Source: a virus. From it: a stretch of DNA of 64,000 bases. The position numbers were made by a program, and so were the translations under genes. The stretch covers positions 224,001 to 288,000 of IMG/VR virus record IMGVR_UViG_3300045988_180880; one strand, 5' to 3'. Shown here one piece after another: positions 448 through 58,518 of the stretch. The notes under the pieces were generated by a model. It worked only from the letters and a program-made list of their open reading frames with translations, had not been told where the DNA came from and made no database searches. Each line of letters begins with the position of its first letter. Position 1 is the first letter of the stretch.

Positions 448-450
448 TAT

Positions 451-663
451 ATGGCATTAACTAATTTTTATAAAGGACCTGAAGCTGAATATTCTAGAGA
501 GAAACATATTAATGGTATCTATATGAGCACTGATTCTAGAAAGCTTTGGATATTCGGACAACCAACACAAGAATTATCAGATATTATAGAAAAAACTGAT
601 TATGATGCTCTTGAATCTAAAGATCCGAATTTAATATATATCGTAAAATTATCAGAAGAATGA
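451..663 (+). CDS. hypothetical protein
   Basis: 70-aa ORF, 3 nt after the upstream stop, with an ATGA overlap into the next gene. Confidence 0.55.
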   Translation: MALTNFYKGPEAEYSREKHINGIYMSTDSRKLWIFGQPTQELSDIIEKTDYDALESKDPNLIYIVKLSEE

Positions 664-974
664 AAAAATTAATTCTAACCCTGATCACTACTCTATTAAT
701 TATTTCTTGTGGTACTACTCGAAAATTTAATACTACTTTTTATGAAGGCTTTTCGATAGAACCACAAAGAATAGTAGATAGTATAACTACAGCAAATTTA
801 CTTCCAGCGTCTATAGAATATCAAGAATGGCCTAAGTTGATGTACTTTACTAGTGATTCAGTTATAACTACACAGTATACGACTATAACCACTAAAGAAG
901 ATACGACTTATATATTCTCGATAACTGAATCCGCTGGAGATAGTATATACTTAATTAAATTTAGAAAAGAATAA
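660..974 (+). CDS. lipoprotein
   Basis: N-terminal MKKLILTLITTLLIISC gives a signal peptide plus lipobox Cys. Confidence 0.7.
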   Translation: MKKLILTLITTLLIISCGTTRKFNTTFYEGFSIEPQRIVDSITTANLLPASIEYQEWPKLMYFTSDSVITTQYTTITTKEDTTYIFSITESAGDSIYLIKFRKE

Positions 975-979
975 TAGTT

Positions 980-1285
980 ATGGATTTTGTATCAGTATTT
1001 TCAACATTAGCTGCTTTAGTGGCTGGTGTTCCTGTTGTTACACAGGCAATTAAGAAACTTATAGGTAAAGAACTTCCAGGGTGGGCTAATCAATTAATTT
1101 CTTGGATAGTTGCCATTGGATTATGTATGTTCGGTTGGTTTTTCGATCTTGGATGTCTTGCTGAAGCTTCTTGGTGGCAATCTCTCATAGTAGGCGCTGG
1201 TGTTGGATTAGCTAGTAACGGTGTATTTGATATCGCTCTAGTTCAGGGAATACTTGAACTTATATTCGGAAAAATAAAAAAGTAA
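980..1285 (+). CDS. holin-like small membrane protein
   Basis: 101 aa with about three hydrophobic segments and a basic C-terminus, 2 nt upstream of a peptidase gene. Call rests on position and topology only. Confidence 0.45.
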   Translation: MDFVSVFSTLAALVAGVPVVTQAIKKLIGKELPGWANQLISWIVAIGLCMFGWFFDLGCLAEASWWQSLIVGAGVGLASNGVFDIALVQGILELIFGKIKK

Positions 1286-1287
1286 TT

Positions 1288-1869
1288 ATGAGATCTTACG
1301 GTTATATTAAAACAGAAAACCTAGAAAGTTACTCAGAATATAAACCACAACCTATCACACTTCCGGCCGAATATAAACTCAAAGATATCGGCAAAGTGTG
1401 GGATCAAGGTAGTGTCGGAAGCTGTGTTAGTCATTCAATAGCAGAAATGTATAATTTTTATCAGCTAAGTCATGGAAAAACTCTAGAGAAAAAGCCTGAT
1501 TGGTTATACTATCTTAGAGCTGATAAAACAATAGATGGAATGATGCCTGCTGAAGGTTTCGAGTTAATGAAAACGGCCGGAGAAATAAAAATCTTCTCAA
1601 GAATATCAACTATCGAAGGAATTAAACATGCAGTAATAACAAATGGACCTGCACTTATAGCTGTTATTGTAAGAAACGGAGAACGTGATGATTTCTGGAA
1701 TGGTTCTGAAAACTTAGGAGGACATGCGATAAGTATTGTTGGTTTCTCTAGAGATGGATTTATGATAAAAAATTCTTGGGGTTATGGATATGCAGAGTCC
1801 GGTTTTTCTGAGATGAGCTATGAAGATGCTGGAAAAGTAATTCGAGAAGCTTGGACTATAATAGAATAA
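1288..1869 (+). CDS. papain-family (C1) cysteine peptidase, candidate lysis enzyme
   Basis: Catalytic motifs QGSVGSC (Cys), GGHAISIVGF (His) and IKNSWG (Asn-Ser-Trp-Gly). Confidence 0.8.
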   Translation: MRSYGYIKTENLESYSEYKPQPITLPAEYKLKDIGKVWDQGSVGSCVSHSIAEMYNFYQLSHGKTLEKKPDWLYYLRADKTIDGMMPAEGFELMKTAGEIKIFSRISTIEGIKHAVITNGPALIAVIVRNGERDDFWNGSENLGGHAISIVGFSRDGFMIKNSWGYGYAESGFSEMSYEDAGKVIREAWTIIE

Positions 1870-1872
1870 AAA

Positions 1873-1920
1873 AAGAGACTAGTAAAGGGTTTAATTTTCC
1901 CAATACTAGTCTTTTATTTT
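1873..1920. terminator. bidirectional hairpin terminator between convergent genes
   Basis: AAGAGACTAGTA (1873-1884) pairs with TACTAGTCTTTT (1905-1916), with an A-run before and a T-run after. Confidence 0.7.
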
Positions 1921-1922
1921 CT

Positions 1923-2603
1923 TTATATCCTCTCTATAAATACCTCATAATCATCTTTACAATACCAACTTGGACATGTATGAGGATTTCCATGTCTATT
2001 TCCTTTTCCTCGGTTTATATAACTTTTCCATCTATATATTGTATCAGATTTCTTAAGAGCTTTCCACCAAACATCAAGTGTCGTTTTTATCCATGAACCT
2101 TTCTCGGCTATTATGTCTGATGGATTAACTAAAGGTTTATTATTATCGTAGTCTCTCAAGTGATGCCAAATATAAGGTCCAGTATATACAAATTTCTTCG
2201 GCCTTGGAGAATATACGGCGATGAATTTTTGGTCGTCAGAATAATCATCATCTCCTGTGTAACAAAAATCTACTTGAATCTCTTTTATCCCGACCCTCCT
2301 TAGTATCGCCGTTTTTTCATCAGGCCGTAAATTATAATACTCATCTCTTATTATCTTTTTCCCAGTCAAATCTCTAAGATAAAAGAATCTACCATTACCT
2401 TCTTTCCCAGGGATCATATCTTTAGGAGACTTACCTAATAAAAAAGTTTCAATATAACCTTTGGGAAATGCATAAAATCCCTTCCTAACTGGAGCTGTAT
2501 GAAATCCTCGAAAAGGTGAATCCCCAGGGAGTGATCCCTCTTTATGATCCTGTGGAGATAAAGTACCCCACCTAAAAAATTCATAACTATTCCTCTTTTT
2601 CAT
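1923..2603 (-). CDS. hypothetical protein
   Basis: 226-aa ORF with no recognisable motif. Confidence 0.6.
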   Translation of the reverse strand: MKKRNSYEFFRWGTLSPQDHKEGSLPGDSPFRGFHTAPVRKGFYAFPKGYIETFLLGKSPKDMIPGKEGNGRFFYLRDLTGKKIIRDEYYNLRPDEKTAILRRVGIKEIQVDFCYTGDDDYSDDQKFIAVYSPRPKKFVYTGPYIWHHLRDYDNNKPLVNPSDIIAEKGSWIKTTLDVWWKALKKSDTIYRWKSYINRGKGNRHGNPHTCPSWYCKDDYEVFIERI

Positions 2604-2910
2604 AAACTCTATTTTTAAAAGTTACAGCCGAAAATCTCTTCTTTACTACTTTTAAGACTTTTTTCTCCAAAGATCGATACTCATTAGAAGAATAATCACG
2701 TTTTAATTCAATATATTCCCAAGGCTCGTCATAAATAAATTCCCAATCAGATGTGCACTTAATTAATTCAGCTGTCCATGGATCTGAATGTCTCCACCTA
2801 AGATAAATACAATAACCTTGAGATGAAATCGGATCAAGAAAATAATAATAACATTGACTTGGACACCATATTAAATCCTCTATCCAATAACCTAATAATT
2901 GTTCGTTCAT
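2587..2910 (-). CDS. hypothetical protein
   Basis: 107-aa ORF overlapping the downstream gene by 17 nt. Promoter-like motif lies upstream. Confidence 0.6.
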   Translation of the reverse strand: MNEQLLGYWIEDLIWCPSQCYYYFLDPISSQGYCIYLRWRHSDPWTAELIKCTSDWEFIYDEPWEYIELKRDYSSNEYRSLEKKVLKVVKKRFSAVTFKNRVYEKEE

Positions 2911-2934
2911 ATATAATATACTGTTTTTTCATTA

Positions 2935-2949
2935 ACATATATAAGGAAA
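2935..2949 (-). promoter_or_regulatory. recurrent promoter-like motif (TTTCCTTATATATGT on the - strand)
   Basis: Member of the CYTTAWWRATGTA family, found 20-35 nt upstream of many start codons in this window. Confidence 0.45.
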
Positions 2950-2969
2950 TAAACGTTCCTTTAAATCAG
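2945..2969 (+). repeat. cassette-junction site 1 (GGAAATAAACGTTCCTTTAAATCAG)
   Basis: Perfect 25-nt inverted copy at 3614-3638. The 15-nt core TAAACGTTCCTTTAA is also present at 7628-7648 and 8315-8335. Confidence 0.9.
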
Positions 2970-3272
2970 GATGGTAGTCACAGAACTGTACAAATATCTT
3001 TAACTCCAGTATCTGCTTCAGATTGGATATTATCCGGAAATGTTAATGGAATCTTATTCACTATAAATTCTCCCGAAATATCTACCTCTGTAGATTTATC
3101 AAACACTATACCAAAGGAAATTAATGTACGTGTAATTGCAACCTATTCTTACAGAAGTAATTCTGGTGGGATAGGTAAATGGATGGTAGGTTCTGCTGAG
3201 TCAAATAGTGTATCATTTTCTCAAGGGGAAACAGGAAGTAAAACGATTTCAGTTATTGGAAGACCTTATTAA
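2949..3272 (+). CDS. start-codon-less cassette ORF A (107 codons, begins I-N-V-P-L-N-Q)
   Basis: Open frame from the junction site to TAA at 3270-3272. The only upstream ATG (2823) lies antisense inside gene 2587..2910. Composition is beta-rich. Confidence 0.45.
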   Translation: MNVPLNQDGSHRTVQISLTPVSASDWILSGNVNGILFTINSPEISTSVDLSNTIPKEINVRVIATYSYRSNSGGIGKWMVGSAESNSVSFSQGETGSKTISVIGRPY

Positions 3273-3289
3273 ATTAATTTCCTTCTATT

Positions 3290-3634
3290 CTATAATACTT
3301 TTTCAGTTCTAATATTAATTGTTGTTTCTTTATCTTTAAATATTGTAAAAGTACTATTAATATTTGTAATAATATATTTATTAGGACTTTCTACTGATCC
3401 TCCATCTATTATTCTATAAGTTCCAACTCTTAATGTATGGGTACTAGAGTAACTAGAAGAACCCTCTTCATTAGTGATTGGTGTAGTAATTTCAGATTGT
3501 ATGCCATCATCTTCATTTTTTATAATAATAAATAGATGAATGTATTCTTCTATATCTATATTAAACCATTTCCAGTCTATATTTAAAGTTCCTAAATTTA
3601 AAATCTTACCACTCTGATTTAAAGGAACGTTTAT
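3290..3634 (-). CDS. start-codon-less cassette ORF B (114 codons, begins I-N-V-P-L-N-Q)
   Basis: Manual translation finds no in-frame ATG, GTG or TTG anywhere. An in-frame TGA (3643-3641) lies three codons upstream of the motif. Stop TAG at 3292-3290. Confidence 0.45.
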   Translation of the reverse strand: MNVPLNQSGKILNLGTLNIDWKWFNIDIEEYIHLFIIIKNEDDGIQSEITTPITNEEGSSSYSSTHTLRVGTYRIIDGGSVESPNKYIITNINSTFTIFKDKETTINIRTEKVL

Positions 3635-3638
3635 TTCC
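3614..3638 (-). repeat. cassette-junction site 2 (inverted copy of site 1)
   Basis: 25/25 reverse-complement identity with 2945-2969. Confidence 0.9.
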
Positions 3639-3644
3639 GATCAA

Positions 3645-3660
3645 TTCCTTATTAATGTAT
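3645..3660 (+). promoter_or_regulatory. promoter-like motif TTCCTTATTAATGTAT
   Basis: Lies 25 nt upstream of the ATG at 3685. Same motif family as elsewhere in the window. Confidence 0.45.
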
Positions 3661-3684
3661 ATTAAAATTAAATAAATTAATCAT

Positions 3685-4413
3685 ATGAAGACAGGAATTG
3701 AAACATTAATTTCAGAGGTTGGAAAAAGAATTACTAACAAAACCCAAGTAGAAGGAGGAATTATTTCTGGTTTAGGAATAAATAAAACTAATGGAAAAGA
3801 ATACGTTATTATAAGCGTTTGTGGATCATCGAACATGACGAAAGATCAACTTAATGATCTTTGCGATATTAAAATTATTACTGAAAAACTTATTACAGAG
3901 ACATTCGATTCTAATGGAATTCCAATGTTTTCTTATTGTACAATAGACGAATTCTTTAATTATTGGAATATCGTTAATGATGAAGAAATTAAAAGTTCGA
4001 TAAATTTAACTTTTAAAGAAGCAAAAGAATTATTTTCCTCAACAATATCTTGGGATATAAAAGAGAAGATCTTAAAAATTTATTCAAGAAGACAACTTGA
4101 AGGTCTTCCAGAAAAAATAGAATATCCAAAAGTACCACAAGATTATCCAGCTGAAAAATTTAGAGATAGTGCTAGAGCTTTTAAGGAACTAATTTGGTTA
4201 GTTAAAGAATATACCAAAGCATCAGCTCTTCAAGAACCTAACTGGAATGATTACTCACAAAATAAATTTGCTATTGTGAGATGTGGTGAAGCAGTAATGA
4301 TTTCGAAAGAAAAAACTTTCTTTCCAATAGCCTTTCTCTCTAAAGAAGTTGCTCAAGTATTCTTAGAAGATCATAAAGAGTTATTAGAAGAATATTATAT
4401 GATTGGAAAATGA
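3685..4413 (+). CDS. hypothetical protein
   Basis: 242-aa ORF. Confidence 0.65.
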   Translation: MKTGIETLISEVGKRITNKTQVEGGIISGLGINKTNGKEYVIISVCGSSNMTKDQLNDLCDIKIITEKLITETFDSNGIPMFSYCTIDEFFNYWNIVNDEEIKSSINLTFKEAKELFSSTISWDIKEKILKIYSRRQLEGLPEKIEYPKVPQDYPAEKFRDSARAFKELIWLVKEYTKASALQEPNWNDYSQNKFAIVRCGEAVMISKEKTFFPIAFLSKEVAQVFLEDHKELLEEYYMIGK

Positions 4414-4625
4414 AAAAATTATTGATTATCCTAATTTTAATATTAGTTTCCAGTTGTGAAGTAGATCTAGAAGAGTATTCTGGATGGATTATTAAAGAAA
4501 AACGTCGAGAACCTTTAGGACTTAATTTTATTATTAGTGATCCAAACAATAATAAAAATTGGAAAATTTTAATAGTTCAAAATTATACATATAAAAAATA
4601 TAATATTGGAGATACAATAAAATGA
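4410..4625 (+). CDS. small lipoprotein
   Basis: MKKLLIILILILVSSC gives a signal peptide plus lipobox. ATGA overlaps on both sides. Confidence 0.6.
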   Translation: MKKLLIILILILVSSCEVDLEEYSGWIIKEKRREPLGLNFIISDPNNNKNWKILIVQNYTYKKYNIGDTIK

Positions 4626-5467
4626 AAGAATTAAAAACAGCTTCCCTCTCAGAAATTCCAGAGAGATTAGAAAAATCATTAACTCCGGAAAATGGGTATT
4701 CACGAAAAACAAAGAATATCCTAGTAAGATATGCTAGATGGTCGTTAACTTATAATAAGATAATGATGAAGTCTGATACTAAGTATATAAATTTTGAATA
4801 TAGTGTTGTTGGAGTTTATCCGTATATTTATCTTATCCCAATTATTAAAGTATATAAGTTAGATCGAATAATTGGAAATAACCTAGTTTATTCAGTTATC
4901 GATACTATAAAAGATCCGAAAGTTTGTTTTGATATCCCGGCTCTTATAGAATTAGGAGAAAAGCATGGAGTAGAGTTTAGACAATATCGTGGAAAAGGTC
5001 CAAATAAAAAACCCATGGCGAGAGTAATGCTAAGAAAATTCACGGATATAGAGAGCTCGTATTTTTACCTTGAAGATTACATTTCAACAGATGATATAAT
5101 AATTGAAACTTTCGATGGACTTAAGAGCTCAGAACAACGTGATATATTCTTAGAACTAGGAACGCCATGTTTTTGTATGACGTTAGATTCTGAAACAAAA
5201 GAATGGATTTTTTCTCTTAATCCTACTATTGGATCCTTTCCTGAAGATATAAATTTTCAAGGATATCCAGATGATTGGTCAAACGAGGGAATAATTCAGA
5301 GATATCAAGAATTTTCCGAAGATCTTCAGAAACCACGTCAAAAAGTAACTCCAGAATCGGTAGCTGAAGAAAAACGATTGGAGATGGAGAGAAGAAAAGA
5401 ACAGAAACGTACTAAAAATAGGAATAATGATAGATCTAAGAAAATATGCAATATTTCCGGAAAGTAA
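4622..5467 (+). CDS. hypothetical protein with basic C-terminal tail
   Basis: 281-aa ORF with a K/R/E-rich C-terminus. Confidence 0.65.
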   Translation: MKELKTASLSEIPERLEKSLTPENGYSRKTKNILVRYARWSLTYNKIMMKSDTKYINFEYSVVGVYPYIYLIPIIKVYKLDRIIGNNLVYSVIDTIKDPKVCFDIPALIELGEKHGVEFRQYRGKGPNKKPMARVMLRKFTDIESSYFYLEDYISTDDIIIETFDGLKSSEQRDIFLELGTPCFCMTLDSETKEWIFSLNPTIGSFPEDINFQGYPDDWSNEGIIQRYQEFSEDLQKPRQKVTPESVAEEKRLEMERRKEQKRTKNRNNDRSKKICNISGK

Positions 5468-5609
5468 TAATTTTTTGGATAGTAGTACTCCAGGGTTAGA
5501 AGAATTAGAAAGATTTAATAAGATCATGGAAGAAACGCAGAAAAATTTGAATATAAAATCAGGATCAAGAAATGATATAATTTATGAAAAAGAAGCTGAC
5601 AAAAAATAA
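5427..5609 (+). CDS. possible small ORF (start uncertain)
   Basis: 60-aa ORF overlapping both neighbours. Weak support. Confidence 0.3.
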   Translation: MIDLRKYAIFPESNNFLDSSTPGLEELERFNKIMEETQKNLNIKSGSRNDIIYEKEADKK

Positions 5610-6123
5610 ATGGATAACTTCAAAAGGTGAGGAATTATCTTTAGAAGAAATGAACAGTTCTCATATATTAAATGCAATCAGAAAAATAAAATCTTCAACA
5701 GGATGGAGAGAAGATTGGCTTCCTATCTTAGAAGCAGAACTAACTAGAAGAAGTATGATAGCAAGAACAGATGATTATGAGAAAAAGATCATAACTGATG
5801 AGGAAAAAATGTATTTCTTATGTACTTCATGTGAATACCAAATGTTATCTGTTGAAGGTGGTAGTTTATCTGATATACTGAATATTACTATTAATGATCA
5901 AGTAAAAAGTTATATAAGAGATAATATTTTTTGTATACCTCTTGAACAATCTAAGGAAAATTTTATTTCGGAGATGGATAAATTAATAAGAAAAACTAGA
6001 AGTAATTCTAAAGAAGATGCTGAGAAATTTATGAGTTATTATGAAAAATATCTTCTAATTAATGTCTTTTCAAAAGAATGGAGTAATTTTATGAACTTAA
6101 TGTTAGGTCGTCATGGAAAGTAG
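5584..6123 (+). CDS. hypothetical protein
   Basis: 179-aa ORF. Confidence 0.6.
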   Translation: MKKKLTKNKWITSKGEELSLEEMNSSHILNAIRKIKSSTGWREDWLPILEAELTRRSMIARTDDYEKKIITDEEKMYFLCTSCEYQMLSVEGGSLSDILNITINDQVKSYIRDNIFCIPLEQSKENFISEMDKLIRKTRSNSKEDAEKFMSYYEKYLLINVFSKEWSNFMNLMLGRHGK

Positions 6124-6349
6124 AATCAAAGAATCAATTATTAAACACTTAGAGTATCAAAAAAGTATTGCTAAAGATCCCGAAGGACCGTTTATATGTT
6201 GTCCTATGCCTGGTAAAAATTCATGGACCATTTCTGAAATAATAGAGGAAGTAAGAAAAGAGACAGAATTTGGAGAGGAATTTGCAGATGATGTTATAGG
6301 ATTAGCTATTGATATTTTATGTCGAAAGAATCAATCAATGAATGGATAA
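6113..6349 (+). CDS. hypothetical protein
   Basis: 78-aa ORF in a tightly packed + strand array. Confidence 0.55.
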   Translation: MESRIKESIIKHLEYQKSIAKDPEGPFICCPMPGKNSWTISEIIEEVRKETEFGEEFADDVIGLAIDILCRKNQSMNG

Positions 6350-6534
6350 ACTCTCAAGAACTAACAACCGAAGATCTTGATTTTATGTGGGATTTTTGTA
6401 TAGTTTTCGGTCATCCTGTAATATCTAAACTTGGAATGGCTTCTTGGAAAGATTTACGTCCAGACTTAATTAAACAAATTCCGAACGAATATGAGAAGAT
6501 GGTAGAAAAAGTAATATATAATAATAAGGAATAA
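6319..6534 (+). CDS. hypothetical protein
   Basis: 71-aa ORF. Confidence 0.5.
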   Translation: MSKESINEWINSQELTTEDLDFMWDFCIVFGHPVISKLGMASWKDLRPDLIKQIPNEYEKMVEKVIYNNKE

Positions 6535-6992
6535 TGAAATTATTGAATTTAGAGGAATATTTAACTCCAGAAAGTATAAAAGTACATGATATTAATCAAT
6601 GGGATTCATTTTTATTTAACTTACTTGAAGAAGAAAATATATATCCACCTAAACTTACTGGACAATGGATAACAGATAAAAATAGATTTTATGAAAAGTT
6701 TGTATGTTTGAAAGAAGTAACTGAGAATACTTATTATCCTATGTATTGTAGACAATATAATCCAATTGAAATTACTATATATCATGAAAAGAATGGATTA
6801 TATGATTTTAAATGTATGTTAATAAGTATTGACGATACAGCTTTTGGGTTTGGATGGGAAAATTTAGAAAGACTTAGCATAGATAAATATGTTCTAGAAA
6901 TTATATCTTGGATTGATAAAGTAGATAAATTAGATCATGAAGAATTAATTAAATATGGACTTTCTTTAGGTGCAGAAGATTTAAGTTGGTAA
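6534..6992 (+). CDS. hypothetical protein
   Basis: 152-aa ORF. Confidence 0.6.
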   Translation: MKLLNLEEYLTPESIKVHDINQWDSFLFNLLEEENIYPPKLTGQWITDKNRFYEKFVCLKEVTENTYYPMYCRQYNPIEITIYHEKNGLYDFKCMLISIDDTAFGFGWENLERLSIDKYVLEIISWIDKVDKLDHEELIKYGLSLGAEDLSW

Positions 6993-7004
6993 TTAAATAT
7001 AAAC

Positions 7005-7118
7005 ATGAATGATTTTAAAATAAAAGATATAGTAAAAGGATTAATGATTTGTACTTTTATTTCAGGGTTTTTAATAGGTATCTTATCAGTTTTAATTTTA
7101 ATTTATTCAACAATATGA
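7005..7118 (+). CDS. small single-pass membrane protein (37 aa)
   Basis: ATG at 7005, hydrophobic core ICTFISGFLIGILSVLILIY, and an ATGA overlap with the next gene. Below the ORF-track size cutoff. Confidence 0.45.
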   Translation: MNDFKIKDIVKGLMICTFISGFLIGILSVLILIYSTI

Positions 7119-7576
7119 AGAAAGAATTATATGATGAGTATGTAAAAGCTTGGGATATTTGGAAGAAAAGAACTGATGAATATTTTCAAAAAAGAGTTGA
7201 AATAATTAAAGATAAAACTCTCTCCGAAGAATCTCAATCAAAACTTTTAGACACATTAGCAGAGAATTTTGATAGAAAAGGTTTTACAGAAGAATATTTT
7301 GGACCTTGGACGGAAATAAGAGATGTTACTGATCTATTAAATCCTGACTTCATTTTACCAGGAATAGGCAAGAATTATTCAGAACTTCAAATAGCGAAAG
7401 ATGATGTTCCAGGAAATTGGGGTAAGATTGCTAGAGATTGTTATGATCCTAAAAGATATGGAAAAATAATTGGACTTGGATATGATTCCGGAGATTATTA
7501 TCTTATTATAGAAAACCCTGATACTGGAGAAGAATCAACAATCTTAATGAATACTAAGTATACTATTGATTCATAA
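7115..7576 (+). CDS. hypothetical protein
   Basis: The listed 7049 start is a TTG. The ATG at 7115 (MKKELYDEY...) is coupled to the upstream small ORF and is more likely. Confidence 0.6.
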   Translation: MKKELYDEYVKAWDIWKKRTDEYFQKRVEIIKDKTLSEESQSKLLDTLAENFDRKGFTEEYFGPWTEIRDVTDLLNPDFILPGIGKNYSELQIAKDDVPGNWGKIARDCYDPKRYGKIIGLGYDSGDYYLIIENPDTGEESTILMNTKYTIDS

Positions 7577-7584
7577 AAGAATAT

Positions 7585-7619
7585 AAGACTAGGATTTTAT
7601 TTTCCTAGTCTTATTTTTC
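7585..7619 (+). terminator. rho-independent terminator
   Basis: AAGACTAGGA (7585-7594) pairs with TCCTAGTCTT (7603-7612), followed by a T-run. Confidence 0.75.
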
Positions 7620-7627
7620 TCTTACCA

Positions 7628-7648
7628 TTAAACGTTCCTTTAAGTCAA
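7628..7648 (+). repeat. cassette-junction site 3 (TTAAACGTTCCTTTAAGTCAA)
   Basis: Shares the 15-nt core with sites 1, 2 and 4. Inverted partner at 8315-8335 differs at one position. Confidence 0.85.
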
Positions 7649-7963
7649 TATGCAAAAGCTGTTTATGTTAATCTCATTGTTACTTGGAGTGGAGATCCAA
7701 GTAGACCTTATGGAGCACACTTTACTTTAACTAGTAATGGTTTTGTACACGGTTTTCAAGAAATATCTAGTTCCGGTGTTCTTCCAGGAGATACAGAAAC
7801 TTTCTCAATACAAATAATAAATGATTATAATGTTTTTTCGTGGAGTTCTTCTGGTGTTTGGTATGCATATCACGATGATCTAAAACAAATACAATCTACA
7901 ATTAGTCCTAGTTCTGGAAATTTTAGCGCTAATAATGACATATACATAACTTTTAATACATAA
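7628..7963 (+). CDS. start-codon-less cassette ORF C (111 codons, begins L-N-V-P-L-S-Q)
   Basis: Manual translation finds no in-frame ATG, GTG or TTG. It starts 8 nt after a terminator and ends at TAA 7961-7963. Confidence 0.45.
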   Translation, partial: LNVPLSQYAKAVYVNLIVTWSGDPSRPYGAHFTLTSNGFVHGFQEISSSGVLPGDTETFSIQIINDYNVFSWSSSGVWYAYHDDLKQIQSTISPSSGNFSANNDIYITFNT

Positions 7964-7984
7964 AATTAAAGATAAAAATAATTT

Positions 7985-8335
7985 TTAATTGTTCTCTGGA
8001 AGTATTGGAAGACGAATATCTATATAAAAAACTTGTTCAGACTCTGAAAGAGTTATATTACTAGGAGTACATACTCCCAATTGACTATATAGACTTCCAG
8101 CCGAGTATAAAAATTCAAGATAATTTGATCCAAAAAATTCTGAATCTATTTTTTGAATTTTAGTATCCGTATATGCACTTCCCATTCCAGATCCTTTAAA
8201 TTCAAAAGAAGGTATTCCAACTTTTCTTAAAGTTAACATCCAATTAATTTGTCTTCCATTACTAGAAGAAGGTATATTTATTTTAAATGTCCAGTATTTA
8301 ATTCTTTCACCCTCTTGATTTAAAGGAACGTTTAA
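7985..8335 (-). CDS. start-codon-less cassette ORF D (116 codons, begins L-N-V-P-L-N-Q)
   Basis: The frame of the listed 7985..8239 ORF stays open 32 codons further up to the junction site. An in-frame TAA lies at 8365-8363. Confidence 0.45.
   Translation of the reverse strand, partial: LNVPLNQEGERIKYWTFKINIPSSSNGRQINWMLTLRKVGIPSFEFKGSGMGSAYTDTKIQKIDSEFFGSNYLEFLYSAGSLYSQLGVCTPSNITLSESEQVFYIDIRLPILPENN
8315..8335 (-). repeat. cassette-junction site 4
   Basis: The reverse complement reads TTAAACGTTCCTTTAAATCAA. Confidence 0.85.
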
Positions 8336-8341
8336 AGTAAA

Positions 8342-8378
8342 AGAAAAATAAGAGATAGGATTTTATTTCCTATCTCTT
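8342..8378 (-). terminator. rho-independent terminator of gene 8370..8876
   Basis: AAGAGATAGGA (8350-8360) pairs with TCCTATCTCTT (8368-8378), with a T-run on the - strand. Confidence 0.7.
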
Positions 8379-8876
8379 TTTCACACTCTCCGAAATAACC
8401 TCTTCTAATTCACCTTCTGTAATATAATCCATTAAAGTTTCTTCGAATTCTACATTTATCCAAGCTTGCAACATAGCTGTATTTTCAAAATCTTCATAAC
8501 TCAGATTTCTTAACTTAACTATCTGATCTACGGCATGTCTTGTTTCGTGATAAAATGTAGTTTTGATATTCTTAACCAAACTTTTATAATCCTTTTTGGC
8601 AATAAAAGGTCTATTTCTTCTAGAGTCAATGTTTACTATTACTACTACTTGATCGAATCCTGTTGTTTTATTAATAATTCTATAAGTAGATGTTCCGGAT
8701 GTTGAACTTATTGTTTCTATAAGTTCTTCTGCTCTTGAATTTTTCTTTACCGGAATTTCCATTTTATGATTCTTTACAAACTTAGTAGTAAACCACCTCG
8801 TCATTTCTTTCTGTGTTCCAATTCCAAAATTAATTTCTACTCTATAAGAATCATGTTTTAATTTACTTATTTTCAT
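8370..8876 (-). CDS. HExxH-motif protein (putative zinc metallopeptidase)
   Basis: FYHETRHAVD motif, 168 aa. Confidence 0.5.
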   Translation of the reverse strand: MKISKLKHDSYRVEINFGIGTQKEMTRWFTTKFVKNHKMEIPVKKNSRAEELIETISSTSGTSTYRIINKTTGFDQVVVIVNIDSRRNRPFIAKKDYKSLVKNIKTTFYHETRHAVDQIVKLRNLSYEDFENTAMLQAWINVEFEETLMDYITEGELEEVISESVKKR

Positions 8877-8950
8877 ATTCTTAAAAATTTAAACTCCTTA
8901 AGCTTTTTATTATTGCTTAAGGAGTATTGTTTTACATTATTTATTTTCTC

Positions 8951-9367
8951 TCATGTATAAGGCTTTAAAGCTCTCTGAAAACGACTATACAAATAAATAT
9001 ATAGTTCATCAGCTAAATTAAATCTACTTAAGTCAGCTTCTATATTCTTTTGAATCTTAACTAAATAATAGATCAGATCAAGCCGAGTACGAGTTTCCTG
9101 AAGTTGAAATCTAAGTATATCTCTAAAAGTGAAGATACTTATATAATCGATCTTAATTCCATATAAATCTTTAAACTTATCAACAGTCATAGTTCCTCTT
9201 TTTATTCCAGAGTTATTAATAAAATCAACTACTTCTGGGATATAATAAGAAATTACAAAGTTTGATAAATTATCTATAGGAAGTTTCGAAGTAAATGCTA
9301 TAAATGTATGAAGAACTAAACCTCTTAGACTTATAGTATTATATATTACCTTATCTTCATAATCCAT
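8951..9367 (-). CDS. hypothetical protein
   Basis: 138-aa ORF. Confidence 0.6.
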   Translation of the reverse strand: MDYEDKVIYNTISLRGLVLHTFIAFTSKLPIDNLSNFVISYYIPEVVDFINNSGIKRGTMTVDKFKDLYGIKIDYISIFTFRDILRFQLQETRTRLDLIYYLVKIQKNIEADLSRFNLADELYIYLYSRFQRALKPYT

Positions 9368-9368
9368 C

Positions 9369-11270
9369 TTAACTTACTGTAGTATGTTTTGTTTTTATTA
9401 CTTTGGTTTTCACTATTTCATTCAAAAGTTTCGGCATTTCCTCTAAGTTATATCCGATATCTATATAAGTATCAAACATATCTTCAACACCGTAAACAGC
9501 ATCTATACTAATCTGAATTATTCCGAATCCAAGTTTTTCTGCTTCTTTTACTTTTGCGGCAGTATCTTTTATTGCTGGAATTCCTCCATATCCATTTGCA
9601 CAAGGGCTACCATCAGATATCACAAACATAATACAATTCTCTTTTGTGAACTTTCTAACTCTCTTTGCTACTTCTAGAATTGCATCTCCATCTCGATTTT
9701 GGGATTTTGCACAACTCTTAGATAATGAAAACTTAGGATTATAATGACTTCCTTCTCGATACACACTCAGATTTATATATCCGATCGAACCAATATCTGC
9801 AGTATGTCCATAAATATATAGATCAACTCCCAAACTTTTTCCGAAGGTTTCATTTAGAAGTATTGCAGCCTGTCTCGCTAGGATTTCCTTTTTTCCACCC
9901 ATAGATCCAGACTCATCAATAAGAACACATATAGTTGATTTATTGGTTCTAACATGTCCCTGTCTTAGGTAAACTTGTGGAACTCCTTGATATGCTTCTG
10001 CAAGTTTTGTCGTATCTAGAATTCCAGACCTACAACCTTGGATATTAAAATCATAGTTCTTATCTGTTCCTGTCAATATCTTTTTTAATCTAGGAACATA
10101 TTTTTGAACTGCTCTCACATCACATAAATAACTATTTCTATCCCCTTTTGGTTTTTCAAAGAATACCTTATCAGAATCACCACGTTCTACTGTTCCCTCT
10201 AAGATTTTCATTGTTAGGCTGTCCTTTAATGATAATAACCTAGATACTTTAGACTTATCTATCTTTCTTCCAGAATCTAAGTCAACTCCATACATTATAC
10301 TAGTTATAGATTCAGTATCATTAATTAAGAATAATATTTTTTTTAATTCCGCCGGATCTATATCAGATAATTTCTTCTCCTTAATTATCTTAAATATACT
10401 TTCAGAAACACTACAAATATCTTTAAGATTTTCTGGATATGGAGTTATCTTTTCTTGAACTTCTTTGTATACCTCAGAATACTCCTCAAGAATCTCCTCT
10501 TCTATTAATCCAGGAAATCTAAGTATCCCTATTAATGTTTTAAAGAAAAGAATCAACTTCCTCTCCCTCATCATATTAAGTCTTCCCTCTAGAGTCTTAG
10601 AATTATAACTTTTCGCACAATCAATAAAATCTTGAAATCCTGGTCGTTCTGTTAGTAATAAATCCTCAACTCTATTATCCTCAAGAAGATTTATGAAAAT
10701 TTTAATAATCTCTCCTTCTTCAGAAGTATATTTTCCACTTATAAAACTAAGAAAATTCAAATAAACTCTTAAGTAGGTATATCTTAAGTGTGCAGCCTCA
10801 TGAAGACCAAATCCACAGAAGGCATTTATTTTTGTTTCATTATCTTCGGTGGAGTCAAATATCTTAGAAGGGACTGCTATTCTTCTTTCGGAATTATCTC
10901 TTTTCTCTTCTGAAAAATAATCTGAATACGAACTACTTTCATCACTACTCTCATTTAAATTTACTTTAATCGGGAAAGGAAAATCCATTATAGTTATCAT
11001 ATCTTTTACAGAACTATAAGCCTTTTCAATTAACTTAGATAATTGTGCATCCTCTTCCTTTCCAACAGATGAATATGAATAATAACTTTCTCCATACCAA
11101 GAGCTTCTATTTATAGTTCTACTTAGCTCTCCAGAATTTCCGACAGATGATTTATAGGATTTTCTAAATATACTCCTACCCCATCTACCATCATCTTCGT
11201 CATCATAGTAATCATCATAATCCTTTCTTTTCCACCAAGGATAATATGAGGTTGAAAAATGTTTACTCAT
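9369..11270 (-). CDS. VWA-domain protein (CobT-like partner of the AAA ATPase)
   Basis: MIDAS motif VLIDESGSMGG in the C-terminal third, plus an HEAAH motif in the N-terminal half. Adjacent to a MoxR/CobS-like ATPase. Confidence 0.7.
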   Translation of the reverse strand: MSKHFSTSYYPWWKRKDYDDYYDDEDDGRWGRSIFRKSYKSSVGNSGELSRTINRSSWYGESYYSYSSVGKEEDAQLSKLIEKAYSSVKDMITIMDFPFPIKVNLNESSDESSSYSDYFSEEKRDNSERRIAVPSKIFDSTEDNETKINAFCGFGLHEAAHLRYTYLRVYLNFLSFISGKYTSEEGEIIKIFINLLEDNRVEDLLLTERPGFQDFIDCAKSYNSKTLEGRLNMMRERKLILFFKTLIGILRFPGLIEEEILEEYSEVYKEVQEKITPYPENLKDICSVSESIFKIIKEKKLSDIDPAELKKILFLINDTESITSIMYGVDLDSGRKIDKSKVSRLLSLKDSLTMKILEGTVERGDSDKVFFEKPKGDRNSYLCDVRAVQKYVPRLKKILTGTDKNYDFNIQGCRSGILDTTKLAEAYQGVPQVYLRQGHVRTNKSTICVLIDESGSMGGKKEILARQAAILLNETFGKSLGVDLYIYGHTADIGSIGYINLSVYREGSHYNPKFSLSKSCAKSQNRDGDAILEVAKRVRKFTKENCIMFVISDGSPCANGYGGIPAIKDTAAKVKEAEKLGFGIIQISIDAVYGVEDMFDTYIDIGYNLEEMPKLLNEIVKTKVIKTKHTTVS

Positions 11271-11276
11271 AGTCTA

Positions 11277-12431
11277 TTAATAAGATAATATTGTTTTATA
11301 TACTGTACTTCTTTCTCCTTCCAAATTAGTTCCTTCATAGATTGGAAGATATACCATTTCCATAGCACTTTTCACACTCCAACCATCTGATACTAACTCT
11401 GAGATCATTAGTGTTTCTCGAATTGATATAGAAGTTGAGATCTCCTGTTTCTTTGAGAGTGATCTAATATTATTCGCTATCTTCACAATTGATCTAGCTA
11501 CTTCTTCATCAATTCCCGTTCTATTAACCAAAACATTTACTTCTTCTGTATCTGGTATAATATTAAGTTCAAGAGGAAAAAATCGATTAAGAAGTGCTCG
11601 GTCTATCATATTAGTTCCAGTATATTCAGAACCTATATTAGCTGTTGCAATAAATGTTACCTCTGGATGAATTTTAATACTTCTAACTCCTTTCCCACAA
11701 GCTATTTCAACATTCAATTCCCGTCTATCATCTAAACAAGGAAACAATACATTATTAGCCCCAAGAGAAGAACGATTTAACTCATCTAAGAGAATTACAC
11801 ACGGTTCTTGAATTACTTTAGTGAACTTAGCATAATCAAATATACTTTTTCCATCTTCTAAGCGATGAACTCCAAGTAAATTTGAAATAGGATCAATCAT
11901 AGAACCCATATCAAACACATGAAGAGGTATACCCATTCTAGAACAAACTTCTTTTACACAACTTGTCTTTCCAGAACCTGTAGGCCCTATAATCATCGTA
12001 TTAACATGTTTTTTTATATTTCTCACTAAGATTCTCCAATTATCAGGGGTCATATAAAATCCATCCTTTGTAGAACTTGGAGAAATTAGTGATGCATCTT
12101 TAAGAATTGTTTCGAGAATCGTATCTTTCTTTAAGGGATCTACGAAATCAATTCCAGTCAGAGTTTTATATTCTTTTTTAGCTTCTTCATCTTTATATGT
12201 TAATCTTTGAAATCCCTTTTGTGTATAAAACTTTCCACCTGAAGAACTAAGATTAAGAAAAGTTGAGATAAATATAGTACCTTCTGAATAAACATCTCTT
12301 ATCTTCTTAGGGCATTGTACATAAAGACTTGTAGATACATTAGAACCATCCTTCAATTTTTGTCCAGGGAGTGCTTTTACTTTCAAATTTCCTTTAACTA
12401 ATACTGTCTCTAAAAAATAATACTTACTCAT
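11277..12431 (-). CDS. AAA+ ATPase, MoxR/CobS-like
   Basis: Walker A GPTGSGKTS and Walker B VILLDELNR. Confidence 0.75.
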   Translation of the reverse strand: MSKYYFLETVLVKGNLKVKALPGQKLKDGSNVSTSLYVQCPKKIRDVYSEGTIFISTFLNLSSSGGKFYTQKGFQRLTYKDEEAKKEYKTLTGIDFVDPLKKDTILETILKDASLISPSSTKDGFYMTPDNWRILVRNIKKHVNTMIIGPTGSGKTSCVKEVCSRMGIPLHVFDMGSMIDPISNLLGVHRLEDGKSIFDYAKFTKVIQEPCVILLDELNRSSLGANNVLFPCLDDRRELNVEIACGKGVRSIKIHPEVTFIATANIGSEYTGTNMIDRALLNRFFPLELNIIPDTEEVNVLVNRTGIDEEVARSIVKIANNIRSLSKKQEISTSISIRETLMISELVSDGWSVKSAMEMVYLPIYEGTNLEGERSTVYKTILSY

Positions 12432-12898: not shown

Positions 12899-13099
12899 TA
12901 CAGAACTTTTTTAATAGATTAAATACTACTTTATGTTTGTATGTCATATTTCCTTTTAAAGTTCTGTTTTGCTCTTCTTATCCTTTCAAACTCTAATAAA
13001 TGAAGTTAAGGTATCCTTAGTCTTCGATTTTATGTAACTGAACTCTGTATTGATGAGTTTAATAATTAGTTTAGTATAATAATAAAAAAATTAAATAAC

Positions 13100-15124
13100 A
13101 TGAATAATAAAATGTATAGGGAAAAAGTAATAGTTCCTAGAGGTATTAGATTTATTTCAGAATGGAGTGAATTTAATTTTAGCAAATTTCCAGGGAAGTG
13201 TATAATAAATAAGCAATTACCTGGTTGTGGATTTACTGAATACTGTATTAGAAGTGGTGAAAATATTATTCTATGTAGTCCAAGAAAAATGTTACTTAAG
13301 AATAAATGGAGTCAACATAAGAATGAAGTTTACTTAGTAGTAAATGAAATGGATAAAGATTCTAATATTGATAAAGATTTATCCAAAATCGATAAGAGCG
13401 TAGTAATAGATAATTTAGTTAAGGAAGAAATATCTACTAATTCTGAAATCTATAAAAGATTATATCATGAAATAGAAGAATATTGTATGAATAGACCTTA
13501 TGGATTAGGTAAGAAGATATTAGTTACTTACGATTCTTATAGGATAGTGAAGGATATCTTAGAAAAGTTAGGATGGTTTAATAGATTTATTACAGTTATA
13601 GATGAATTTCAGAGTATCTTACATGATGCTAGATTCAAAAGTGATACTGAATTAAAATTTATGGAATACCTTAAACAGTCCCCCACTGCATATTTTGTAT
13701 CTGCTACTCCAATGATGGATGAGTACCTAGAAATGTTAGATGAATTTAAAGATTTACCTTATTATGAATTAGATTGGGGAAGTGAAGACACAACAAGAAT
13801 TATTAAGCCTGATTTAGATGTATATTTAATGAGAACGGTTGGTGAAAAGGCGTCTGAAATTATTCAAAAATATCTTAATAATGATTTTGAAAGTGTAGTA
13901 GTTCTTAGAAATGGTATTCCAACTAGGATAATATCAGATGAGGCTGTATTTTATGTAAACAGTGTGAATCATATTACATCTATTATAAAAAAGAATAACC
14001 TTACCCCTGAACAATGTAATATATTATGTTCAGATACAGAAGATAATAAAAAGAAAATTCAGAGAAGACTTGGAAAATCTTTTACAATAGGAGAAGTACC
14101 GTTGAAAGGAGTTAAACCTAAGATGTTTACATTCTGTACTAGGACTGTATATCTTGGGGCTGATTTTTATAGTTTATGTGCAAGGAGTTTCATATTCTCA
14201 GATTCTAATATAGACAGTTTAGCTGTTGATATTAGTGAAGATCTTCCCCAAATACTAGGTCGTCAAAGACTTTTCGAAAATCCTTGGAGTAATAGTGCAA
14301 TATTCTATTATAGATCTACTGCTAACTATAGAGAGATGAAGGAAGAAGATTTTAAAAATATAATAGAATCTAAGAAAAAATCTACTGAAAATCTATTATT
14401 AGCATACAATACTACCTTAGACACTGTTAAGTATGATTTAGCAAAGAATTATCAAAAAGTTGCTAAATCTTATAACTACAAAGATGATTATGTAGCAGTA
14501 AATAAAATTCAAACACGGGATGGAAATATAATACTTAAACCTGTTCTTAACAATTTAGTATTAGTAAATGAGATTAGGGCATTTAAAATACAACAAATAG
14601 ATTATAAAGATAGATTTAGTGTATTTTCCACTATTCATAATACTTTATCTCCAGATGATATAGTTAATCAGGAGGTATCAGAATTTCTTAGAGTATATAC
14701 TAAATTAAGTACTATACATGATAAACTAAAAATGCTGTGTGAGTATGGTTTATCTAGTGATGCAATTGATATAGTTCTTGGACAGATAGCTGATTCTGAT
14801 GAAATTAAGTCTTATTATACTACATTGGGCTCTAGTAAGCTTAAATCACTATCTTATAATAGTGCTAAAATAAAAAATCATCTAGGGGTAGTAACATTTA
14901 GTCAAGAACTTCTAGAATCTAGTATTTATTCGGAATTTAAAGTAGGGGATAAAATAACACTATCTGATATAAAATCTAGACTTGAGGTGTTATATAAGTC
15001 CATTAATTACGACAAAGTAGCCAAAGCAAAGGATTTAGAAAACTATTTTGAAGTTAAGAATTCTAGTATTTATGAAAATGGAAAGAAAGTAAAATGTTAT
15101 ATTATTATTAAAAAGAAAGAATAA
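13100..15124 (+). CDS. SF2-helicase-like protein, paralogue 1
   Basis: Motif II VIDEFQ, motif III SATP and motif VI QILGRQRL. The motif I position reads LPGCGFTE, with no P-loop lysine. By eye, more than half of residues look identical to 52727..54766. Confidence 0.6.
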   Translation: MNNKMYREKVIVPRGIRFISEWSEFNFSKFPGKCIINKQLPGCGFTEYCIRSGENIILCSPRKMLLKNKWSQHKNEVYLVVNEMDKDSNIDKDLSKIDKSVVIDNLVKEEISTNSEIYKRLYHEIEEYCMNRPYGLGKKILVTYDSYRIVKDILEKLGWFNRFITVIDEFQSILHDARFKSDTELKFMEYLKQSPTAYFVSATPMMDEYLEMLDEFKDLPYYELDWGSEDTTRIIKPDLDVYLMRTVGEKASEIIQKYLNNDFESVVVLRNGIPTRIISDEAVFYVNSVNHITSIIKKNNLTPEQCNILCSDTEDNKKKIQRRLGKSFTIGEVPLKGVKPKMFTFCTRTVYLGADFYSLCARSFIFSDSNIDSLAVDISEDLPQILGRQRLFENPWSNSAIFYYRSTANYREMKEEDFKNIIESKKKSTENLLLAYNTTLDTVKYDLAKNYQKVAKSYNYKDDYVAVNKIQTRDGNIILKPVLNNLVLVNEIRAFKIQQIDYKDRFSVFSTIHNTLSPDDIVNQEVSEFLRVYTKLSTIHDKLKMLCEYGLSSDAIDIVLGQIADSDEIKSYYTTLGSSKLKSLSYNSAKIKNHLGVVTFSQELLESSIYSEFKVGDKITLSDIKSRLEVLYKSINYDKVAKAKDLENYFEVKNSSIYENGKKVKCYIIIKKKE

Positions 15125-56919: not shown

Positions 56920-56970
56920 CAAATAAATATAAATTACAACTAAATTTAACTAATAAAAACTAAATTAATC

Positions 56971-58497: not shown

Positions 58498-58518
58498 CCA
58501 TATATACATAAAAAGATT

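Follow-up and report, generated by a model that had tools for sequence, protein, structure and literature searches.

Start-less gene cassettes between inverted junction sites: a probable invertible unit of a multi-site shufflon in human-gut jumbo phages

Introduction

Positions 7628-8335 of a 64,000-nucleotide stretch of viral DNA (hereafter the window; positions 224,001 to 288,000 of IMG/VR record IMGVR_UViG_3300045988_180880) hold a 708-bp segment bounded by two inverted copies of a short junction site. Two open reading frames (ORFs), C and D, begin at these sites and converge on each other. An initial annotation of this DNA took the pair for silent cassettes of a shufflon-like system. Here we report a computational analysis of that proposal, covering the segment, the window and hundreds of related loci. 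We conclude that the segment is probably one invertible unit of a multi-site shufflon, carried by an abundant, uncultured clade of human-gut jumbo phages, and that an enzyme of the Mpi type acting in trans would be its likeliest catalyst. The carrier phages are represented by contigs of 230-380 kb with a GC content of about 29%, and they come from the human gut.

Inversion systems that vary tail fibres have been textbook material since Mu and P1. Those known are small and local and lie beside their own invertase. In the shufflon of R64 and the IncI plasmids, several segments each carry two convergent 3' gene ends that lack a start; these serve a constant 5' gene, and the segments rearrange by inversion only. 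The sfx site at which they do so is asymmetric, with one conserved arm. A dispersed arrangement is found in Mycoplasma pulmonis, where silent vsa and hsd genes without 5' ends begin with the recombination site and are expressed only after inversion to an expression site. One tyrosine recombinase, HvsR, serves several loci of this bacterial chromosome, and in vsa a single expression site gives the promoter and the signal peptide.

Results and discussion

Anatomy of the segment

The junction site is a 16-mer, TTAAACGTTCCTTTAA, with exact copies at 7628-7643 on the + strand and at 8320-8335 on the - strand. Two further copies, each with one mismatch, lie at 2949 (+) and 3634 (-). The most frequent 14-mer of the window, AAACGTTCCTTTAA, has four copies, and they fall at these same four places; no other 14-mer of the window is in high copy. 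We take the left recombination site to be TTAAACGTTCCTTTAAGTCAA (7628-7648, + strand) and the right one to be TTAAACGTTCCTTTAAATCAA, read on the - strand (8315-8335). A repeat finder extends the inverted-repeat arms of the segment to 34 nt at 79% identity (7615-7648 and 8315-8348), because the T-tract of the flanking terminators is common to both arms.

Cassette C reads inward from the left site (7628-7963, + strand; 111 codons and a TAA stop), and cassette D reads inward from the right site (7985-8335, - strand; 116 codons and a TAA stop). A spacer of 21 nt (7964-7984) separates their convergent stops. Neither begins in the usual way: C has no in-frame ATG, GTG or TTG, and the first ATG of D is codon 33, which puts its first methionine 32 codons in. 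The translations start with LNVPLSQ (C) and LNVPLNQ (D) and are otherwise unrelated, with no similarity by BLASTP to each other or to cassettes A and B of a second segment in the window (segment 1, described below).

On both sides the layout is the same in mirror image: a gene reading towards the segment, a terminator-like hairpin, then the site. On the left, a hairpin at 7583-7614 (+) follows the gene at 7049-7576 (+); it has a 12-bp stem with four GC pairs, followed by TTTTCTCTTA. This hairpin closes the operon at 3685-7576, and its T-tract continues into the left repeat arm. On the right, the hairpin of the gene at 8370-8876 (-) lies at 8350-8378 (-), with an 11-bp stem followed by ATTTTTCTTT. 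From the end of the stem to the first base of the site there are 13 nt on the left and 14 nt on the right. The initial annotation had described the inverted sites, the lengths and spacing of the ORFs, their lack of starts and this mirrored layout, and our coordinates agree with it on all of them.

At the base composition of the window, the chance of 111 stop-free codons is about 1e-4. With that figure, with a site that is the top 14-mer of the window and with hundreds of related loci built alike, the arrangement of the segment is confirmed not to be a matter of chance. Cassettes that have neither promoter nor start would stay untranscribed behind terminators, and this would be why C and D are each placed just past one. 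As the window is arranged, both are expected to be silent.

Coding status of the cassettes

Are C and D still genes? Complete copies of C (n = 21, at least 86% identity) and of D (n = 13, at least 75% identity) keep frame and length in every case. When C is compared with the allele of loci L002 and L006, synonymous divergence (dS) is about 0.55 and non-synonymous divergence (dN) about 0.07, with a dN/dS of 0.12-0.15. For D, compared with the ENA allele in locus L038, dS is 0.44, dN 0.16 and dN/dS 0.37. C and D are real coding sequence under purifying selection and are not decaying. Neutral decay with broken frames in relatives, which the initial annotation had named as an outcome that would tell against its proposal, is not what the copies display.

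Recurrence of the site and shuffling of cassettes and flanks

The segment is one of many. The 19-mer TAAACGTTCCTTTAARTCA occurs in 37 IMG/VR stretches, mostly from contigs of 230-380 kb, and a genome has as many as 20 sites. Public metagenomes add at least 105 stretches, almost all of them labelled human gut. An ORF of about 100-226 amino acids begins at each of the approximately 350 related sites, always in one codon phase. Once the first 10 residues are set aside, the cassettes of the first 37 loci form about 20 families without detectable similarity between families.

Across contigs, the same cassette appears behind differing flanks and the same flank before differing cassettes. The first set of loci comprises about 35 cassette classes and 28 flank classes; the enlarged set of 352 sites comprises 61 and 66. 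The C-D pair itself is found intact in more than 15 other contigs, where it has at least 10 different flanks and faces them either way round.

What lies on the far side of a site? Every site adjoins one of three things: the terminator of a gene reading inward, the promoter-like motif of a gene reading outward or the place where a long expression gene ends. Both flanks of segment 2 (as we call the segment at 7628-8335) are of the terminator type, and both flanks of segment 1 are of the promoter type, with the motif CCTTATWWATG. Flanks of the third kind are long ORFs whose frame continues into the site at their 3' end. Behind the left terminator flank of segment 2 (type T2/F20/F31), many different cassettes are found in other contigs; behind the right one (type T1/F00), at least seven different cassette classes are found elsewhere.

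One promoter-type flank, F16 (for example at L023 6394, L038 2927 and L012 5287), puts ATG AAA right before the site. The cassettes that follow it have been called as free-standing 'MK-INVPL...' proteins of about 118 amino acids (P0002, P0004 and P0005).

Rearrangement of the blocks between sites

The four sites divide the window into Block I (1-2976), segment 1, Block II (3603-7650), segment 2 and Block III (from 8305). Between its two sites, Block II is a self-contained operon on the + strand (3635-7627): it has a promoter-like motif, CCTTATTAATG, at 3647-3657 (+), genes from 3685 to 7576 and the terminator at 7583-7614. Block I has at its edge the corresponding promoter-like motif CCTTATATATG (2936-2946, - strand), which lies upstream of an outward gene at 2587-2910 (-).

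Copies of Blocks I, II and III at 90-99% identity stand elsewhere in a different order or orientation, and the breaks fall exactly at the sites. Even between genomes that are 96-99% identical, the DNA between sites is reshuffled and inverted in this way. In L013, Block II has the orientation towards Block I that it has in the window, and in loci L008 and L011 it has the opposite one; a single inversion between the sites at 3634 (-) and 7628 (+) interconverts the two arrangements. In L023, cassette D adjoins the flank of Block I, the product expected from inversion between 2949 (+) and 8335 (-). Over all loci, a site and its neighbour have opposite orientations in 261 of 266 cases, and in the window the order of the sites is +, -, +, -. 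Among 141 two-site segments there are 121 different flank pairs, and each of the four flanks of the window has 9-11 different partners. The junctions of flank, core and cassette can be relied upon, since no assembly k-mer is as short as the core they share. Cassettes, flanks and blocks are exchanged at the sites, and the elementary step of this exchange appears to be inversion.

On contig 3300045988_180568, 20 sites lie within 29 kb, in a stretch that also encodes a family-A DNA polymerase, a P-type ATPase and the fibre-like proteins. In this contig (41.4-86.3 kb) Blocks I and III are 29 kb apart, compared with 5.4 kb in the window, and the window has neither the fibre genes nor the block with DNA polymerase A that are present there.

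The boundaries of the 708-bp unit might also be those of a mobile element of the MITE (miniature inverted-repeat transposable element) or insertion-sequence type, with terminal inverted repeats around variable cargo. Its inverted terminal repeats of 21-34 nt fit such an element, as does the recurrence of the same ends around different cargo at many positions. But a transposase and target-site duplications are both lacking. The supposed terminal repeats are coding junctions, read in frame, which long genes also have at their ends, and Blocks I and II are rearranged at the same points, which transposition of the unit would not do. We regard a mobile element as extremely unlikely.

A few blocks and segments are very short. 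In L008 two sites stand back to back about 70 bp apart, at 8345 (+) and 8414 (-), enclosing an 'empty' or collapsed segment that links the terminator flank of Block II to the promoter flank of Block I. Some minimal blocks measure about 55 bp and are nothing more than a bidirectional terminator hairpin: L004 11296 (-)/11352 (+), L025 10677 (-)/10731 (+) and L016 5432 (-)/5486 (+). The sites of these minimal blocks have degenerate left arms (ATAAYTG or CTATATG) and still swap cassettes with canonical sites.

Cassettes as the 3' ends of long genes

If the cassettes are silent past terminators, where are they expressed? At 66 sites there is an upstream ORF of at least 55 codons that is in frame with the cassette, and many of these ORFs have 470-870 codons. 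The long ones are paralogues. They have the N-terminus MADLLIATKAFCNTLKAG and the first 290 or so residues (MADLLIATKAFCNTLKAGSFTGDTT...) in common. Beyond that point their sets of S/T-rich repeats differ, and BACON and fn3_6 match them marginally. Just before INVPL or LNVPL they end in ...ESDSSN, ...TSDDSS, ...QSDSSS or ...SWPSPSN. Together they are joined to more than 25 different cassettes. A constant 5' gene that ends at a site, complete with fused products, is thus a feature of the related contigs and not of the window. From this architecture, and from their position, the long genes and the cassettes would seem to have a fibre-like, receptor-binding role.

Both cassettes of segment 2 occur in fused form. 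Cassette D is in frame behind an ORF of 770 amino acids in L117 and behind one of 689+ amino acids in L025, where the end of the locus cuts the ORF. Cassette C is fused in L005 to the paralogue that ends in ...SWPSPSN (fibre paralogue 2). An exhaustive search of C against 1.8 billion representative proteins yielded P0019, a protein of 581 amino acids from a more distant relative, whose C-terminal 110 residues are 48% identical to C. Its junction, ...ESGKNINVPLEQ... (NINVPLEQ), links the C-like domain to the same kind of N-terminal part. The homologues of D in a collection of 5.8 billion proteins all have 72-138 amino acids, from which it follows that D is silent in most assemblies and that gene callers invent short upstream starts for it.

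Fibre paralogue 2 has an in-frame TGA in three loci (L016 at about 4460, L031 at about 370 and L005 at about 1560), where L035 and L008 have TGG (Trp). This may be a shared nonsense mutation or a recoding of TGA to Trp in late genes. TGA terminates 17 of the 77 long ORFs of the window, so any such recoding would be local.

Could C and D instead be ordinary small genes, translated from a non-canonical start or through a stop codon, with the 5' motif serving as a translation or regulatory signal or as an N-terminal peptide? ORF C does continue the frame of gene 7049-7576 upstream of it, with a single TAA in between. In addition, gene callers give homologues of D short upstream starts, such as the MK|INVPL contributed by one flank type. 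The frame relation of C is not kept, however: the same flank stands in another frame in other contigs, and read-through of the stop into C was rejected for that reason. D is out of frame with the gene upstream of it. The cassettes lie directly past strong terminators, identical cassettes stand behind unrelated flanks that include antisense promoter regions, and the same cassettes form the C-termini of proteins of 580-890 amino acids. Furthermore, 14 nt of DNA identity across unrelated cassettes exceeds what a peptide motif needs. This reading is very unlikely. That C and D are silent cassettes of the shufflon type, as first proposed, is strongly supported by the mobility of the cassettes, the fused forms, the purifying selection and the recurring placement past terminators.

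The point of exchange

Where within the site do flank and cassette part? We numbered the core A/T1 T2 A3 A4 A5 C6 G7 T8 T9 C10 C11 T12 T13 T14 A15 A16 and compared all 352 sites. Positions 1, 4, 5 and 6 are fully predicted by the class of the flank (conditional entropy at most 0.05 bit). At positions 11, 16-18 and 21 onward, the class of the cassette is a much better predictor than the class of the flank. Sites with degenerate left arms narrow the interval. There are 49 of these (ATAACTG, ATAATTG, CTATATG or TTATATG), joined to 27 cassette classes, and 24 of the 27 are also found behind canonical arms. Degenerate and canonical partners share only GTTC[C/G/T]TTTAA; therefore exchange takes place in G7-C10. 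The exchange interval is the invariant GTTC. In segment 2 this would correspond to 7634-7637 in the left site, with the central TT at 7635-7636, and to 8329-8326 in the right site. Ten common nucleotides are too few for homologous recombination, which argues for a site-specific enzyme.

The site, TAAACG-TT-C[C/G]TTTA, is a dyad around an asymmetric TT. Five of the six positions in each arm are symmetric, and all six are in the G variant. With terminator-type flanks the layout widens to 12+2+12, TTACTTTAAACG TT CCTTTAAATCAA, with 9 of 12 positions symmetric. A dyad with an asymmetric 2-bp centre is the geometry characteristic of the sites of serine invertases, such as hix and gix. The recombinase is thus probably a serine invertase.

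A second class of enzyme has to be considered. A tyrosine recombinase, of the R64 Rci/sfx type or the bifidophage Rin/rix type, would act on a conserved right arm and leave the left arm free. The left arm is conserved over about 6 nt only and the right arm over about 20-30 nt, and such asymmetry of the arms is a hallmark of sfx sites. Phage-borne shufflons with tyrosine invertases do exist, as in Rin with its 11-bp rix site (PMC6109161). But only 4 nt, the GTTC, lie between position 6, which goes with the flank, and position 11, which goes mostly with the cassette, and the usual overlap of tyrosine recombinases is 6-8 bp. The palindromic core around an asymmetric TT matches a serine-invertase site instead, and much of the conservation of the right arm can be explained by the coding of the common linker peptide. 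No Phage_integrase match was found in the window ORFs or the locus representatives. A tyrosine recombinase is, in our judgement, quite unlikely.

A core of the Mpi type

The preference for a serine invertase is strengthened by the sequence of the core. At the capsule promoters of Bacteroides intestinalis, Shkoporov et al. found GTTCGTTTAA as the inverted repeat on either side; it overlaps the repeat of the Mpi-controlled promoters of B. fragilis, ARACGTTCGTN (PMC8375218); the Mpi consensus used in our comparison is taken from that paper. The phage core, AAACGTTC[C/G/T]TTTAA, matches both ARACGTTCGTN and GTTCGTTTAA (PMC8375218). Phage sites of the G variant, AAACGTTCGTTTAA (34 of 352), contain both sequences exactly, and the commonest form of the site differs from the Mpi repeat by one base of the core, a C instead of a G.

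Mpi, a serine recombinase, acts in trans to invert 13 dispersed regions (PMC4747536). Action in trans on many distant sites would fit with the lack of a local recombinase in the phage region. The use to which the sites are put differs: Mpi invertons flip promoters of about 200 bp and so turn transcription on or off, whereas the phage sites lie in coding sequence and would swap protein domains. The Mpi-like core, together with the BACON-like repeats of the long ORFs, points to an Mpi-type enzyme and to a host among the Bacteroidales.

A model for the shufflon

These observations suggest the following mechanism. C and D would be 3' gene cassettes without promoter or start, each encoding an all-beta domain of about 105 amino acids after the junction peptide (I/L)NVPL(N/S)Q. 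Outside the window, at least two paralogous long genes, with putative BACON/Ig-like repeats and 470-870 amino acids before the site, would each end at a copy of it in the same codon phase. Inversion between the site at a gene end and an oppositely oriented cassette site would splice the cassette onto the long gene. Its C-terminal domain, presumably a receptor- or glycan-binding tip, would be replaced. Strands would be exchanged within the GTTC of the 10-bp common core GTTC[C/G/T]TTTAA.

The blocks between the sites would be self-contained, bounded by an outward promoter and, at the opposite end, by a terminator. Since each block has its own promoter-like motif and terminator, inversion would leave its genes working and the unselected cassettes untranscribed. 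Insulation of this kind would also explain the mirror-symmetric order of gene, terminator and site around segment 2.

Which enzyme would do the work? The likeliest catalyst would be a serine invertase of the Mpi family, supplied in trans by a distant locus of the phage or by the Bacteroidales host. A stronger version, in which the phage has no invertase and its roughly 20 shufflon sites are substrates of the host's master invertase Mpi, is possible but doubtful. Were it true, the enzyme that varies the capsule would also reshuffle the receptor-binding tips of the phage in the same infected cell. Whole phage operons would be inverted as well, and the diversification of phage host range would be coupled to host phase variation.

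Evidence against the model and the case for general recombination

A number of observations weigh against the shufflon model, and one of them is the lack of a recombinase gene nearby. Our searches spanned the window and the related loci, with some 250-300 kb of each genome lying outside them. Pfam finds no Resolvase, Phage_integrase, DDE or IS110 match among window ORFs of at least 75 amino acids (30 + 47 ORFs), and no recombinase among 47 + 8 cluster representatives of ORFs of at least 120-130 amino acids from loci L001-L143. Likewise, phmmer searches with Hin, Gin and gamma-delta resolvase give no match among six-frame ORFs of at least 50 amino acids in 1.04 Mb of related loci. The recombinase is not encoded in or beside the shufflon region.

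Nor did comparisons within an assembly reveal clear switching. No two contigs of one assembly match at 98% identity or more as far as a site and then part, and only a few ambiguous cases show the same flank with different cassettes within one assembly. Contig ends do cluster at sites (64 of 184 ends, including 7 of the 9 ends of contigs longer than 200 kb), which repeats of terminator plus core longer than the k-mer could explain. The window itself has four sites only and no long expression gene, and its arrangement on the large scale may reflect either a shortcut taken in assembly or the deletion of DNA between directly oriented sites. At positions 11, 17 and 21-24 of the right arm, several combinations of polymorphisms occur within a single cassette class; some exchange or gene conversion may therefore take place to the right of GTTC.

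The proteins, too, offer little by way of recognizable relatives. The AlphaFold2 models of C (predicted local distance difference test score, pLDDT, 65; eight strands, residues 1-7 disordered) and of D (pLDDT 62; seven strands) are of low confidence, and a Foldseek search with them against PDB and BFVD gives no match at E <= 1e-3. Both of these low-confidence models do have an all-beta domain of 7-8 strands after a disordered junction peptide. The cassettes have no Pfam or PHROG match. For the long ORFs there is no PHROG match and no PDB sequence match, the BACON match scores 24.3 bits against a cut-off of 25, and the fn3_6 match is marginal.

Several of these points can be read in favour of general recombination. 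Strains would exchange segments by microhomology-driven recombination or gene conversion, with the conserved junction of 15-30 bp as a portable linker for the recombination machinery of the phage itself or for co-infecting relatives, and no programmed switching would be involved. The missing recombinase, in the window and in about 1 Mb of related loci, is what one would expect. So are the differing combinations of right-arm polymorphisms within one cassette class, and all of the evidence for rearrangement comes from comparisons between samples, with no isomers within an assembly. The window also encodes recombination nucleases like SbcC and SbcD. Against this, partners of degenerate-arm sites that have only 10 identical nucleotides (GTTCCTTTAA) have swapped 24 cassette classes, and such a stretch is too short for enzymes of the RecA/UvsX type. 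The markers to the right of position 11 are mainly linked to the cassette, and crossovers are concentrated at GTTC. The near-perfect alternation of site orientation and the insulation of blocks by promoters and terminators look fitted to inversion, and the core is that of a known invertase site. We consider general recombination unlikely and retain the shufflon, with its site-specific enzyme, as the best explanation.

The 108 matches to AAACGTTCSTTTAARTCA in bacterial genome contigs are single and in unrelated taxa, which is near the number that chance would give (roughly 70), and the extended right arm of the phage site is not enriched in bacterial genomes.

A diversity-generating retroelement was rejected as a source of the variation: no reverse-transcriptase family appears in any Pfam scan of window and locus ORFs, and the cassettes are mutually unrelated, not near-repeats.

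Comparison with known systems

How does the proposed shufflon compare with those already described? It would work like the fibre inversion systems of phages, above all the multi-site Min, and like the R64 and vsa systems. Min of the P1-like plasmid prophage p15B, Gin of the Mu G segment and Cin of the P1 C segment have start-less 3' ends of fibre genes as convergent pairs on invertible segments, as here (PMC6109161). Like the phage system, they use short sites within a gene that fuse a constant 5' part to a variable 3' part, and their enzyme is a serine invertase, the class we favour for the phage sites. Their scale is different: they occupy 3-4 kb, with 2-6 sites, one fibre operon and an adjoining invertase gene, whereas here about 20 sites extend over about 29 kb. 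Unlike those systems, the present one has at least two paralogous expression genes, and the first loci alone hold about 20 cassette families unrelated to one another. The sites also enclose housekeeping operons (DNA polymerase A, P-type ATPase), which would invert along with the cassettes.

The R64/IncI shufflon (the PilV shufflon is cited in PMC9881135) differs from the phage system in having an adjacent gene for the tyrosine recombinase Rci, a compact locus of 2 kb and no intervening operons, and in serving a plasmid pilus adhesin, pilV. In the Mycoplasma vsa system the expression site contributes a promoter and a signal peptide; here, long structural genes supply more than 80% of the protein.

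Receptor-binding proteins of gut phages are varied by multi-cassette inversion, as we propose here, in the Rin shufflon of Bifidobacterium prophages (PMC6109161), and the tail-fibre shufflon of BV01-like Phocaeicola phages likewise works by multi-cassette inversion (PMC13596623). Both systems invert at 10-11-bp repeats (PMC6109161; PMC13596623). They differ from the phage system in extending over 1.7 kb to a few kb, with 3-5 cassettes and their own recombinase alongside, and in being temperate. Their site sequences (TTCCCTAACCC; TGGGAGAACT) are unrelated to the phage site.

The defining anatomical features of a shufflon are present, and an adjacent recombinase is lacking. What is new is the scale (about 20 sites and dozens of cassette families), the dispersion among insulated housekeeping operons, the service of several paralogous genes, the occurrence in a jumbo phage of the virulent type and the Mpi-like core. 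A literature search found no description of a shufflon in a jumbo phage. The combinatorial repertoire would be far beyond that of any phage shufflon described. Such a system would account for the breaking of assemblies of these genomes in this region, and we predict that no single assembled sequence will reveal the host range of these phages. One type of enzyme, or even one and the same enzyme, may drive both the variation of phage receptor binding and that of the host capsule.

Segment 1 and the promoter-like motif

Segment 1 (2949-3634) belongs to the same system. Its sites lie at 2949-2969 (+) and 3634-3614 (-), and its repeat arms (2945-2976 and 3607-3638) are 32 nt long and 94% identical. 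It holds cassette A (2949-3272, + strand; 107 amino acids) and cassette B (3634-3290, - strand; 114 amino acids). When translated from their sites, A, B, C and D all begin (I/L)NVPL(N/S)Q. Neither A nor B has a counterpart among the IMG/VR loci. Both are present at 98% identity in a gut contig, L060, behind other flanks, and there A follows the flank type that B has in the window. Cassette A is also 49% identical to a cassette fused onto long ORFs in L054 and L077.

The motif CCTTATWWATG is found 28 times in the window, where 11.9 copies are expected, and none of 100 shuffled sequences reaches that count. Gene starts in matching orientation follow some 20-40 nt downstream of it, and it is often extended to CTTCAAAGCCTTATATATG. 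Examples are at 2936, 3647, 8952, 12506, 19851, 21520, 25378, 32015, 37417, 41135, 41696, 62364 and 62630. It is probably a phage-specific promoter element.

Other features of the window

The window has a GC content of about 29% and the gene content of a large virulent phage. Its genes include those for NrdG, thioredoxin, PhoH, an IMPDH/GMP-reductase-like protein and a MoxR AAA+ protein with a VWA partner, as well as SbcC/SbcD-like proteins, KilA-N/ANT and four tRNAs. A megablast search of positions 1-12000 against GenBank phages gives no match, and there is no annotated reference genome. The SbcC-like protein of 934 amino acids has relatives by tblastn at no more than 28% identity. Rfam finds no known RNA family in positions 1-12000, and a search of A-D and six neighbouring genes against Pfam and PHROGs gives no useful match.

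Two paralogous genes at 13100-15124 (+) and 52727-54766 (-) encode proteins of 674 and 679 amino acids. They are 71-86% identical in DNA sequence and lie inverted about 38 kb apart, with homology also upstream of them (12955-13004 and 54864-54913). The proteins have no Pfam or PDB match, and a VIDEFQS motif hints at a helicase-like protein. These long inverted repeats could themselves allow inversion of the 38-kb region between them.

The gene for anaerobic ribonucleotide reductase, nrdD (26158-30546, - strand), is split into separate ORFs, at 29857-30546 and 26158-26946 with further pieces between. An ORF for an HNH/NUMOD4 endonuclease (28811-29743) lies inside the split gene, in a manner resembling insertions of homing endonucleases or introns.

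The four tRNA genes, for Arg-tct, Met, Leu-tag and Glu, lie within 56848-62736. Interleaved with them are two related genes of the HNH plus sigma70-region-4-like type, at 57432-58160 and 59388-60251, which contain a direct repeat (57447-57611 and 59418-59582) of 81% identity.

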